The notes under the pieces were generated by a model. The model searched no databases, was not told the DNA's origin, and saw only the letters and a program-made list of their open reading frames with translations. The translations under genes were made by a program, and so were the position numbers. A stretch of 8,808 nt of DNA from a virus (taxonomy: Duplodnaviria; Heunggongvirae; Uroviricota; Caudoviricetes). The stretch lies in IMG/VR virus record IMGVR_UViG_2706794492_000011; one strand, 5' to 3'. Below, piece after piece: positions 4,195 through 6,369 of this stretch; position 1 is the first letter of the stretch; every line of letters starts with the position of its first letter.

Positions 4195-4620
4195 TTAGTG
4201 CATCACCACAGCATTCCCTGCCGGGCCGCCGCGATTCATCTGGTCATACAAAACAACCGCTGACGCAACAAAATCATCGACATCCTTCACCAGCCGATCC
4301 CTCCGTTCGACGATCTCACGGTAATATTCAGAACTGTGGCTGCGCATACGGGCCACCAGCAAAGGCGGCATCGCCTTTTCGATCGCCGGTAACAGAGCCT
4401 GCATTTTTTCAACAGCATCAGGGGTGTCTTTCTCTACCCAGCGGAAAATTTTCTGGGTATTGCGAGCCAGGGCTTCCGGATGGCTGTCGTCATACAGTTC
4501 TGGGAACGTCATACCCAACTCAAAATAAGCCTGGGTTATTCCAGCTGCTGGAACTTTTTCGCCATCAGGACGCGCCCAGGCATTCATCGCCATGCGGATG
4601 TGTTCATGCTTGATTTTCAT
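4195..4620 (-). CDS. ydaT: YdaT-family protein (Rac-prophage YdaT-like; reported as toxin or CII-like regulator)
   Basis: 141-aa ORF beginning MKIKHEHI..., ATG at 4620 with GGAG about 7 nt upstream; overlaps the upstream YdaS-like gene by 17 nt; position (Cro-like, YdaT, replication genes) as in Rac. Confidence 0.7.
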   Translation of the reverse strand: MKIKHEHIRMAMNAWARPDGEKVPAAGITQAYFELGMTFPELYDDSHPEALARNTQKIFRWVEKDTPDAVEKMQALLPAIEKAMPPLLVARMRSHSSEYYREIVERRDRLVKDVDDFVASAVVLYDQMNRGGPAGNAVVMH

Positions 4621-4879
4621 GAATCAACTCCGGTGTATTTTGTGTGTTAGCCTTATCTCCAGCAGGCAACCCGTCGGTTGGATTCGGATATAAATCTGGT
4701 CGCAATTCATGAGGAGTCACCCCAGTTGCAATATAAATTTGACGAACCCGCTCCCCTGTCGGCACTCGACCATTGTATTCATTTGCCCATTTGTGTATTT
4801 GAGACGGCCAAGCCCCTATTGCACGCCCTAGCGGACGAATACCACCAGCAATCTTTATTGCCTTGTCCAATGCTGTCAT
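4604..4879 (-). CDS. ydaS: Cro-like HTH regulator, YdaS family
   Basis: 91-aa ORF MTALDKAIKIAGGIRPLGRAIGAWPSQIHKWANEY...; GGAGG 4 nt upstream of ATG at 4879; first gene of the leftward operon, divergent from the repressor gene. Confidence 0.7.
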   Translation of the reverse strand: MTALDKAIKIAGGIRPLGRAIGAWPSQIHKWANEYNGRVPTGERVRQIYIATGVTPHELRPDLYPNPTDGLPAGDKANTQNTPELIHENQA

Positions 4880-4906
4880 ACAACCTCCAATTCAATCAGC
4901 CACAAC

Positions 4907-4935
4907 ATTGTTCACTTAAAGAGAACATAAGTCAA
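4907..4935 (-). promoter_or_regulatory. putative early (PR-like) promoter with operator in the spacer: -35 TTGACT (4935..4930), -10 AACAAT (4912..4907), operator TGTTCACTTAAAGAGAACA (4909-4927)
   Basis: Read on the minus strand: TTGACT-17 nt-AACAAT, about 25 nt upstream of the ydaS RBS. The 19-bp imperfect palindrome (half-sites TGTTC...GAACA) occupies the spacer. Near-identical to the module at 5437-5465. Confidence 0.5.
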
Positions 4936-4946
4936 CACTACGAGGA

Positions 4947-4984
4947 ATTGTTAGTGTTCACTGAACGGTTATAATTGCTAAATG
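4947..4984 (+). promoter_or_regulatory. putative repressor-maintenance (PRM-like) promoter: -10 TATAAT at 4970-4975 about 7 nt before the repressor ATG; adjacent palindrome GTTCACTGAAC (4955-4965)
   Basis: Perfect TATAAT hexamer ending 6 nt before ATG 4982 with no Shine-Dalgarno in between, implying a leaderless mRNA. Weak -35 TTGTTA at 4948-4953. Shares the TGTTCAC half-site with the operator. Confidence 0.4.
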
Positions 4985-5371
4985 GACATGAGAAAAAAGC
5001 AATACGACACCCCGCTGGCAGAAAGGTTAGATACGATCTCGCAACAGCATCATTTAAGCGGTTCAGATTTAGCGCGCATCGCTGGTGTAGGACGCTCATC
5101 AGTCAACGCCTGGAAAAAAAGAGGGACAATCAGTAAAGATTCCGCAGCCAAAATTGCAGAAGCGACAAATGTTTCCCTTTCCTGGCTACTGACAGGAAAA
5201 GAAGATACAAACAGAGAGGCGCTTGATGATGATGAGAAAGCCCTGCTTGATGTTTACAGAAACCTGCCACCTGTAGAGCGTAGAAATATGCTGGCAGCTT
5301 TTCAAATGCGCCTTCAAAAACTGACCGAATTTTACTCAGAATACGTTGACCCAATAACGCGACAAAAATAA
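4982..5371 (+). CDS. dicA: XRE-family phage repressor (DicA/RacR-like): N-terminal HTH plus C-terminal helical domain
   Basis: 129-aa ORF with HTH segment LSGSDLARIAGVGRSSVNAWKK; divergent from the Cro-like gene; followed by terminator and the dicF-dicB arm as in Qin. The symbol is by analogy and recalled similarity, not a database hit. Confidence 0.75.
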   Translation: MDMRKKQYDTPLAERLDTISQQHHLSGSDLARIAGVGRSSVNAWKKRGTISKDSAAKIAEATNVSLSWLLTGKEDTNREALDDDEKALLDVYRNLPPVERRNMLAAFQMRLQKLTEFYSEYVDPITRQK

Positions 5372-5392
5372 TTCTTTATTTTACAAAACAAT

Positions 5393-5415
5393 ACCGCCGG
5401 AAGGCGGTTTTTTTT
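5393..5415 (+). terminator. Rho-independent terminator downstream of the repressor gene
   Basis: ACCGCC-GGAA-GGCGGT perfect 6-bp GC-rich stem with tetraloop, followed by a run of 8 T (5408-5415). Confidence 0.8.
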
Positions 5416-5436
5416 GCCTCTTGCGCATTCACAATG

Positions 5437-5465
5437 TTGACATATGTTCATCTTAAGAGAACAAT
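5437..5465 (+). promoter_or_regulatory. putative promoter of the ydfA-dicF-dicB arm (PL-like) with operator in the spacer: -35 TTGACA (5437-5442), operator TGTTCATCTTAAGAGAACA (5445-5463), -10 AACAAT (5460-5465)
   Basis: Consensus TTGACA, 17-nt spacer, AACAAT. Spacer is 13/17 identical to the ydaS promoter spacer; operator is 16/19 identical to 4909-4927. Confidence 0.55.
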
Positions 5466-5540
5466 ATATCCCATCAAAGCACAACGGTGCGACAGGTCTT
5501 AGTTCCGCCCCCCCCGGCGTTAAGGGCAAATGAGGTCAAC

Positions 5541-5693
5541 ATGGATACGCTCAATCTTGGCAACAACGAATCTCTGGTATGTGGCGTGTTTCCCAATCAG
5601 GACGGCACGTTTACCGCGATGACGTATACCAAAAGTAAAACGTTTAAAACCGAAGCTGCCGCGCATCGCTGGTTAGCCAGAAACGCTAACTGA
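5541..5693 (+). CDS. DUF1391-family small protein (YdfA/YdaF-like), 50 aa
   Basis: MDTLNLGNNESLVCGVFPNQDGTFTAMTYTKSKTFKTEAAAHRWLARNAN; GAGG 6 nt upstream of ATG 5541. The track ORF 5487-5693 extends upstream over the promoter and is not favoured. Matches recalled YdfA/YdaF proteins. Confidence 0.6.
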   Translation: MDTLNLGNNESLVCGVFPNQDGTFTAMTYTKSKTFKTEAAAHRWLARNAN

Positions 5694-5953
5694 TTAGCGC
5701 CAGTAAAAACAGGTTTCCACAGGTTAATTTACCCTGAAAAGTCAGGGCATAACACGAAAGCGCACGGCGAGATCCCTTTGCATATAAGTCTTGCCGTTAA
5801 ATTTCTTCGACCGTGCGCTTCTGGTTGTGGCAATCCGCGAAATGGCGCGGCGGTAAGTATGGCGGGGTTATTCCTTCCCCTTGAGGACACCGGGTTGTCA
5901 GGCTGACCATACGCTTAAGTGACAACCCCGCTGCAACGCCCTCTGTTATCAAT

Positions 5954-6011
5954 TTTCTGGTGACGTTTGGCGGTATCAGTTTTACTCCGTGACTGCTCTG
6001 CCGCCCTTTTT
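5954..6011 (+). ncRNA. dicF: DicF small RNA (ftsZ-targeting sRNA of Qin-type prophages)
   Basis: TTTCTGGTGACGTTTGGCGGTATCAGTTTTACTCCGTGACTGCTCTGCCGCCCTTTTT matches E. coli DicF as I recall it; ends in a GC-rich segment plus T5; about 170 nt upstream of a dicB homologue. Exact ends are approximate. Confidence 0.6.
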
Positions 6012-6180: not shown

Positions 6181-6369
6181 ATGGAAACGTCACTACCAAA
6201 CGTTAATACGTCTGAAGGGTGTTTTAATATTGGTATTCTGCTCAGTAACCGGGAGTTTACTGAAGACGCCATCAGGATGAGAAAATATGAGCCTTATCTT
6301 CTCAATGATAATTCCATACTCTCCAGAATTGCCCTTCTTGAACTTGGCATTTTCGGAGGGCAGCAGTGA
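6181..6369 (+). CDS. dicB: DicB-like cell-division inhibitor (MinC-activating), 62 aa
   Basis: METSLPNVNTSEGCFNIGILLSNREFTEDAIRMRKYEPYLLNDNSILSRIALLELGIFGGQQ; N-terminal half closely matches recalled K-12 DicB (METLLPNVNTSEGCFEIG...FTEDAI...), C-terminal half diverges. GAGG 8 nt upstream of ATG 6181. Confidence 0.75.
   Translation: METSLPNVNTSEGCFNIGILLSNREFTEDAIRMRKYEPYLLNDNSILSRIALLELGIFGGQQ

Follow-up and report, generated by a model that had tools for sequence, protein, structure and literature searches.

Matched, probable promoter-operator modules on either side of a short CI/DicA-type repressor gene in a lambdoid prophage of Escherichia coli O157:H7

We have analyzed an 8,808-nucleotide stretch of viral DNA (Caudoviricetes; IMG/VR record IMGVR_UViG_2706794492_000011), called the window below, which is a lambdoid prophage of E. 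coli O157:H7 in the style of Rac, Qin and CP-933P. In this element, the gene of a 129-aa helix-turn-helix (HTH) repressor lies between two almost identical promoter-like modules in inverted orientation. The locus raises the question of whether these modules are the early promoters of the prophage, both of them governed by the repressor encoded between them. We consider, with a probability of roughly 0.8, that they are divergent early promoters, one PR-like and the other PL-like or dicBp-like, and that each would carry one strong repressor operator.

Two matched modules around the repressor gene

The minus-strand module (4935..4907) has the form TTGACT-N17-AACAAT with the spacer TATGTTCTCTTTAAGTG (TTGACT-TATGTTCTCTTTAAGTG-AACAAT), and the reverse complement of 4907-4935 reads TTGACTTATGTTCTCTTTAAGTGAACAAT. 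The plus-strand module (5437..5465) has the form TTGACA-N17-AACAAT with the spacer TATGTTCATCTTAAGAG (TTGACA-TATGTTCATCTTAAGAG-AACAAT), and its full sequence is TTGACATATGTTCATCTTAAGAGAACAAT. These 29-bp modules are alike at 24 of 29 positions and their 17-nt spacers at 13 of 17, and the 19-mers embedded in them, TGTTCACTTAAAGAGAACA (4909-4927) and TGTTCATCTTAAGAGAACA (5445-5463), agree at 16 of 19 (84%). An earlier reading of the sequence, called the original prediction here, had described two near-identical inverted modules that flank the repressor gene, and this likeness exceeds what shuffled sequence yields. In a repeat search, the module pair was the top inverted repeat (31 nt, 84% complementary). 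Using 150 first-order Markov shuffles of 4550-5750 as the chance control, the best non-overlapping inverted 29-mer of this region had 24 matches against a shuffled mean of 19.2 (standard deviation 0.8, maximum 22), and the best inverted 31-mer had 26 against 20.0 (standard deviation 0.9, maximum 23).

The motif shared by the two 19-mers is TGTTC-N9-GAACA. When up to one mismatch was allowed, the 8.8-kb window contained two sites, both exact, where 0.34 would be expected, and two or more sites occurred in 7 of 200 shuffles. No further copy occurs in the window or anywhere across 25 kb of the prophage. A consensus promoter scan of 4400-6000 returned both modules, one more promoter at 4948-4975 and nothing else. 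The repetition of the two modules is above chance and coincides with predicted promoters just upstream of both early arms. On the one hand, the description of the 19-mers as palindromes is right for the outer 5-bp arms, which are symmetric. On the other hand, the symmetry is limited to these arms, the self-complementarity being 16/19 in the left site and 12/19 in the right site.

The directions assigned to the two modules agree with gene annotation, Pfam and Rfam. On the minus strand, the module points towards the Cro-like gene, ydaT and the replication genes; the other module, on the plus strand, points towards ydfA, DicF, dicB and the exonuclease gene. The repressor (RefSeq WP_001380402.1, annotated as a helix-turn-helix protein) matches Pfam PF07022, Phage_CI_repr (1.8e-12), and its Pfam matches are to five overlapping HTH families, all within residues 15-75; no Peptidase_S24 match was among these five families reported at E<=0.01. 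It also matches the N-terminal domain of phage 186 CI (PDB 2fjr), and it is 26% identical to K-12 DicA over 110 aa (E 5e-7), including the C-terminal LP..E...L motif. The Cro-like protein belongs to the YdaS family (Pfam PF15943, 7e-10), matches the Cro proteins of PDB entries 3bd1 and 5w8y, and is a probable second ligand of the same operators. Considering these protein and RNA identities, the two modules occupy the positions that PR and PL have in a lambdoid immunity region.

Conservation of the proposed operators and their change with immunity type

Relatives of the repressor were collected from GTDB genomes, INPHARED phages and IMG/VR. In about 25 loci, the encoded repressor is 98-100% identical to that of the window, and in two more distant loci its identity is 81% (L037) and 78% (L004, from Lelliottia); we refer to this group as type A. 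Columns were counted in 15 distinct upstream and 19 distinct downstream sequences, with repressors 78-100% identical. At both promoters, GTTC-N11-GAAC is kept in all type-A relatives and the 9-bp centres differ between loci, with CTTAAAGAG, CTTAAAACG, CCAAAAAAG and CCTAAAGAG as examples at the left site and ATCTTAAGA, ATTTGAAGA, ACCTAGAGA and ACCTTGGAA at the right site. The invariant columns amount to 17/20 in the operator arms, 7/18 in the 9-bp centres and 34/95 in the other non-coding sequence, so that Fisher tests give indicative p values of 0.006 for arms against centres and 1e-4 for arms against other non-coding columns. Taken separately, the right-arm operator has 9/10 invariant columns in its arms and 5/9 in its centre, and the left-arm operator has 8/10 and 2/9. 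The -35 hexamers are invariant at 5/6 columns both in the PR-like promoter (plus-strand AGTCAA, 15 distinct type-A relatives) and in the PL-like promoter (19 distinct relatives). Within one phage the left and right centres differ, and they vary independently, which argues for selection on the arms and not for copying between the sites.

A matrix built from this family scored 34.7 bits at the right-arm operator (4909-4927) and 32.3 bits at the left-arm operator (5445-5463), and no other 19-mer of the window reached 8 bits. In the 25-kb scan, the other matches above 8 bits were two 19-mers of 10.7-10.9 bits near espM1/nleG, beyond the integrase gene. IMG/VR was also scanned for TATGTTC-N9-GAACAAT, a pattern whose 14 specified bases are too few for that collection; nearly all of the 120 matches were unrelated single sites, and the only two paired loci are of this prophage type. 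As a separate observation, one IMG/VR locus (L040) has a frameshifted repressor gene with a 69-aa product, and both operators and all three promoters are intact there.

In relatives whose repressors are 57-74% identical to that of the window, the recognition helices and the operator differ and the layout is kept (Table 1). The kept features are the terminator, a -35 of TTGAC/TTGAT, a 17-nt spacer in which a dyad lies, and, 6-7 nt ahead of the repressor start codon, a TATAAT/TACAAT hexamer. The relatives with a TGTTAG-type operator (L038, L163-L165) have repressors 73-74% identical to that of the window. An operator that changes with immunity type in this manner shows the behavior expected of an immunity operator that would be read by phage-encoded HTH proteins. 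Two of these relatives, L163 and L038, have mixed or degenerate PL operators, and the one in L163, TTGACACATGTTCACCTTTGTCGAATACT, has the left half of the window type, which suggests that recombination between immunity types may have occurred inside the operator.

Table 1. Immunity types distinguished among the relatives, with the HTH segments and operator of each
Type	Loci	Repressor helix	HTH of Cro-like protein	Operator
A	window, L037, L004	GRSSVNAW(K/R)KRG	IRPLGRAIGAWPSQIHKW	TGTTC-N9-GAACA
B	L038, L039, L163-L165	SRSSVN.W(Y/H/F)KRG	NQRRLALALN.RPSSLNKW	TGTTAGC-N5-..CTAACA
C	Klebsiella phage Kp4882-1, L173-L191	SPTSVTNWFKR.	KRRLALALNIKPSSLSRW	TTAGCC-N3-GGCTAA
D	L171, L172	SRSSV.GWHKRG		TGTCAGC..

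The Qin prophage of E. coli K-12 has the gene order of the window, with a Cro-like gene on the left followed by a short repressor gene, a terminator, a promoter, ydfA, DicF and dicB. Qin DicA is a distant homologue of the window repressor, which is likewise short and has no detected S24 peptidase domain. The Qin promoter dicBp reads TTGACC-GATATGTTAGTCATGGC-TAATCT, and its 17-nt spacer holds a 14/18 copy of the DicA operator Oc, TTGTTAGTCATAACTAACAA. The plus-strand module of the window aligns with dicBp column for column, and homology resumes directly after the -10 hexamer, indicating that the promoter-operator segment is the exchangeable, immunity-specific part. Of the three sites proposed in the dicA-dicC region, DicA bound Oc and no other in vivo (PMC3441716), and it represses dicBp and forms a bistable switch together with DicC (PMC10448788). 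The two elements differ in the operator, which is TGTTC-N9-GAACA (19 bp) in the window and TGTTAG-N6-CTAACA (18 bp; in Oc, TTGTTAG-N6-CTAACAA) in Qin. They also differ in that the Cro-like protein of the window is not similar to Qin DicC (BLASTP E 1.1), that the window is without ydfB and ydfC, and that its right arm has ydaT and intact-looking replication genes. The PR/PL-like logic of the original prediction is supported by this alignment, by the conserved half-sites and -35 hexamers next to variable centres and flanks, and by the change of operator with the HTH helices. Its view that a single operator within the spacer departs from lambda and DicA does not hold, since the same arrangement is found in K-12 dicBp and in PR and PL of CP-933P (PMC8630535).

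A candidate switch and competing explanations

The original prediction missed a third promoter, TTGTTA-16-TATAAT at 4948-4975. The intergenic region between the repressor and Cro-like genes is 102 bp long (4880-4981) and contains this promoter and the PR-like promoter back to back, with 12 bp between their -35 sides. Its TATAAT ends 6 nt before the repressor ATG at 4982, a gap of 6-7 nt that is common to all related immunity types, and no Shine-Dalgarno sequence precedes this ATG. The promoter is the equivalent of PRM, and considering the short distance from TATAAT to the ATG, the repressor mRNA would probably be leaderless, by analogy with cI and paaR2.

Within the spacer of this promoter lies a half-site, GTGTTCACTG (4954-4963). 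Its columns are invariant at 10/10 and those of the PRM-like -10 at 6/6, in comparison with 16/57 of the other non-coding columns. A full third operator was considered at this position and rejected; two registers give just 7/10 and 8/10 core matches, and conservation in the 78% and 81% relatives extends to the TGTTCAC half alone and not to the 11-bp palindrome GTTCACTGAAC. Because of these weak core matches and the conservation of one half only, we call it a half-site, and it is plausible that it serves as a low-affinity site for autoregulation or for the Cro-like protein. Accordingly, the claim of one site per arm is right in that each arm has one full site, and it has to be qualified by the conserved half-site in the third promoter and by two weak operator-like 19-mers, at 4889-4907 (7/10 core matches) and 4949-4967 (8/10), neither of which is distinguishable from background. 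The former, AATTCAATCAGCCACAACA, abuts the right-arm operator at 20 bp centre to centre, and the transcript of the Cro-like gene is predicted to start within it. The E. coli group keeps this 19-mer in part, L037 is without it, and about 0.4% of the 19-mers of the window score as high, so that it is at most a possible auxiliary operator.

What we infer from these patterns about the binding protein, the use of the promoters, their start sites and the leaderless mRNA can be put together as follows. Each early promoter would have one strong 19-bp operator, TGTTC-N9-GAACA, between -35 and -10 and centred near -18, with the promoter-distal arm abutting -35 and the promoter-proximal arm overlapping the -10 hexamer AACAAT. 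A dimer of the 129-aa CI/DicA-type repressor (4982-5371) would occupy each operator and exclude RNA polymerase, silencing the Cro-like gene, ydaT and the replication genes on one arm and ydfA, DicF, dicB, exonuclease, xis and int on the other. The earlier statement that one repressor dimer switches off both arms cannot be taken literally, because each promoter needs its own dimer. The repressor would be transcribed, probably into a leaderless mRNA, from a promoter of its own at 4948-4975, which stands back to back with the PR-like promoter, and the half-site in that promoter would probably provide autoregulation, shut-off by the Cro-like protein, or both. The terminator at 5393-5416, which is kept in all relatives including those of Klebsiella and Lelliottia, is predicted to part repressor transcription from the PL-like promoter and thereby to insulate it. 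For the PR-like promoter, a start is predicted near 4900, which would leave about 21 nt of leader, and GGAGG precedes the ATG at 4879 by 4 nt.

Several points weigh against this mechanism. The relatives are phylogenetically dependent, and since they are related by descent, the Fisher tests overstate the significance. AACAAT is a weak -10 hexamer, and its conservation is inseparable from that of the operator arm overlapping it. One side of the PL operator is degenerate in relatives of the TGTTAG type, which means that two-arm symmetry is not universal. Across immunity types, changes in the repressor go along with changes in the Cro-like protein, and therefore the covariation does not tell which of them is the reader; in lambda as in CP-933P, both proteins are. 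In addition, a literature search for the exact operator sequences and the RefSeq protein accession gave no match among the papers searched.

Among the alternatives, one supposes that a repressor tetramer or higher oligomer bridges the two sites, 536 bp apart, and that this looping is needed for tight repression, as between OL and OR of lambda. In all 27 type-A loci, the 78% and 81% relatives among them, the operators are 535-539 bp apart, the spacing from Oc to the dicBp operator of K-12 Qin is also 536 bp (2367 and 2903 in L002 against 4909 and 5445 in the window), and octamers have been reported for PaaR2 and lambda CI (PMC8630535). However, this spacing is largely a consequence of conserved gene length, and among the related immunity types the -35 to -35 distance ranges over 496-519 bp with no conserved helical phase, so we consider a requirement for looping unlikely. 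A helical-phase constraint between the operators was rejected on this same range. We also noted that the 536-bp spacing is equal in Qin and the window although dicA is 18 nt longer, and this is probably a coincidence because related types differ by up to 23 bp in promoter spacing. A wider proposal that builds on bridging seems no less doubtful to us. According to it, the locus would be a minimal switch with one strong operator per early promoter, in which bistable control would come from bridging over about 536 bp by a repressor oligomer and from the half-site in the leaderless promoter instead of from tandem cooperative operators, and the family would form a natural series of at least 4-5 operator specificities on a fixed promoter scaffold.

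Slightly less probable again is that the main reader of the operators is the Cro-like YdaS-family protein (4604-4879), or that the sites are divided between both proteins, for example PR and PL going to the repressor and the half-site of the repressor promoter to the Cro-like protein. The HTH of this protein changes with the operator type at least as sharply as the repressor helix, being IRPLGRAIGAWPSQIHKW in the window type and RRLALALN.(R/K)PSSL..W in the types with a TTAGC core, and in CP-933P, YdaS and PaaR2 footprint the same region (PMC8630535). However, the repressor helix also changes with the operator type (GRSSVNAWKKRG, SRSSVNAWYKRG, SPTSVTNWFKRE), and in lambda, Qin and CP-933P alike, the operators at PR and PL are bound by the CI-like protein (PMC3441716, PMC10448788, PMC8630535). 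As shared operators are the rule in such switches, we regard this proposal more as a refinement of repressor control than as a true alternative to it. Finally, it is very improbable that the similarity is a leftover of duplication or recombination or reflects sites of host regulators, with no role in prophage immunity. Arms like TGTTC/GAACA do occur in some host operators, such as those of GlpR and DeoR, and mosaic boundaries adjoin both modules. However, only the arms and the promoter hexamers are conserved, with drift in the centres and flanks, both sites take the same place in their promoter spacers, and the operator follows the phage regulators and not the host genus, the layout being found in Escherichia, Lelliottia and Klebsiella.

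Related prophages and neighboring features

Besides Qin, the O157:H7 prophage CP-933P was compared with the window, using its region fetched from an O157:H7 genome. Its ydaT is nearly identical to that of the window (PDB 8bt1), and both elements have the exact YdaT operator TTGATT-N6-AATCAA. The OM site of CP-933P has been footprinted, and its motif and location match positions 4610-4627 of the window (PMC9986795), where the operator TTGATTTTCATGAATCAA is centred on the ydaT start codon. Accordingly, the CII-like/PRE module is common to both prophages, and the repressor-Cro module is swapped. The PR, PRM and PL promoters of CP-933P have been verified experimentally, and its PRM mRNA is leaderless, the promoter ending at the start codon (PMC8630535). 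Similar to the window, PR and PL of CP-933P are matched promoters with an operator in the spacer (PMC8630535). In terms of the regulators, on the other hand, the window repressor gave no BLASTP alignment with PaaR2, so that membership in the PaaR2 family was rejected, and the Cro-like protein showed no similarity to CP-933P YdaS (E 5.4). The window also differs in being without the paaA2-parE2 pair of CP-933P, the terminator and PL-like promoter coming directly 3' of the repressor gene, and in having one full site and a half-site in the intergenic region where CP-933P has four 18-bp repeats.

The window resembles lambda in its divergent repressor and cro genes, back-to-back PR and PRM, related operators at PR and PL, a repressor mRNA that would be leaderless, and an activator of the CII type encoded downstream of cro. 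Each arm of lambda carries three tandem 17-bp operators, binding to them is cooperative, and the lambda repressor has a RecA-cleavable C-terminal domain, whereas each arm of the window has a single strong operator, situated in the spacer, and no S24 domain was detected in the 129-aa repressor. Likewise, the Rac prophage of K-12 has a repressor gene divergent from a ydaS-ydaT operon with replication genes downstream. Rac YdaS is 30% identical to the YdaS-family protein of the window (E 4e-6) and thus closer to it than DicC, but the similarity of RacR to the window repressor is confined to a 28-residue stretch of the HTH region, and the left arm contains kilR and sieB in Rac and dicF and dicB in the window. 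The element is a heteroimmune sibling of characterized systems, in which the operator-in-spacer design was already known. Its operator-repressor pair is a new immunity specificity within an ordinary, already understood design, and the current understanding of such switches is unchanged by it.

One of the many lambdoid prophages of O157:H7 would owe its immunity specificity to this module, which would also gate DicF and DicB, both acting on cell division, together with replication and recombination genes. Knowledge of the operator and its cognate repressor would make it possible to predict which O157 prophages cross-repress one another, to design reporters for spontaneous derepression, and to make comparisons with the Qin DicA and CP-933P PaaR2 switches.

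Table 2. Features of the immunity region and adjoining genes, with positions in the window
Feature	Position	Strand	Remarks
YdaT, CII-like regulator, 141 aa	4195..4620	-	PDB 8bt1 E 1e-88; Pfam PF06254
Cro-like YdaS-family HTH protein, 91 aa	4604..4879	-	First gene of the PR-like operon
Exact YdaT operator TTGATTTTCATGAATCAA	4610..4627		0 mismatches; Cro-like gene/ydaT junction, PRE-like region
PR-like early promoter TTGACT-N17-AACAAT	4907..4935	-	Sequence reading, promoter scan; faces Cro-like gene, ydaT, replication genes
Right-arm operator TGTTCACTTAAAGAGAACA	4909..4927		5-bp arms, 9-bp centre; centred about -18 in the PR-like promoter
PRM-like repressor promoter TTGTTA-16-TATAAT	4948..4975	+	10/12 in promoter scan
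Short CI/DicA-type HTH repressor, 129 aa	4982..5371	+	RefSeq start 4988 (second ATG)
Intrinsic terminator	5393..5416	+	6-pair stem (5 G-C), then T run; 3' of the repressor gene
PL-like (dicBp-equivalent) promoter TTGACA-N17-AACAAT	5437..5465	+	Faces ydfA, DicF, dicB, exonuclease
Left-arm operator TGTTCATCTTAAGAGAACA	5445..5463		Centred about -18 in the PL-like promoter
ydfA-like DUF1391 gene	5541..5693	+	Pfam PF07151 1.3e-29, RefSeq; first gene of the PL-like operon
DicF small RNA	5955..6006	+	Rfam RF00039, 76.7 bits vs gathering score 48; PL-like operon
dicB cell-division inhibitor gene	6181..6369	+	RefSeq annotation of identical FRIK944 sequence; ATG at 6181 checked

A prophage of E. coli O157:H7 strain FRIK944 matches the 1.2-kb region around the repressor gene with 100% identity, and of 5426 complete E. 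coli genomes, 82 contain at least 80% of this region. Leftward of the repressor gene, RefSeq annotates an antiterminator, rusA, hokD, DUF977, DUF1627, an ATP-binding replication protein, an HTH replication protein, ydaT and a small transcriptional regulator. Rightward, it annotates the HTH protein, DUF1391 (ydfA-like), dicB, DUF1482, an exonuclease, an excisionase and an integrase adjoining an ompW remnant. The G+C content of the immunity module (4604-5465) is 0.435, in comparison with 0.529 in the replication genes to the left and 0.476 in the dicF-dicB arm to the right, and this lower value fits a mosaic, exchanged module.

The leader that follows the PL-like -10, at about 5466-5535 (CATCAAAGCACAACGGTGCGACAGGT...GTTCCGC...GGCGTTAAGGG), is conserved across heteroimmune prophages. 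It is kept in Escherichia (including K-12 Qin and, in part, CP-933P), Lelliottia and Klebsiella, even where the downstream gene is different. RNAalifold gave about -1.3 kcal/mol and no convincing helix for this leader, and no Rfam match came near a gathering score; it could be a site of processing, antitermination or protein binding. The poly-C tract within it (5508-5515) has 8 C in the window and 6 or 7 C in otherwise identical IMG/VR loci, which reflects either a length polymorphism or a sequencing error.

Elsewhere in the window, a run of 149 N (masked sequence) occupies 265-413, inside a minus-strand open reading frame. An exact 14-nt direct repeat, CGCGCATCGCTGGT, is present at 5073-5086, in the part of the repressor gene that encodes the HTH, and at 5660-5673, near the 3' end of the ydfA-like gene; about 0.003 exact repeats of this length would be expected by chance in 1.2 kb.

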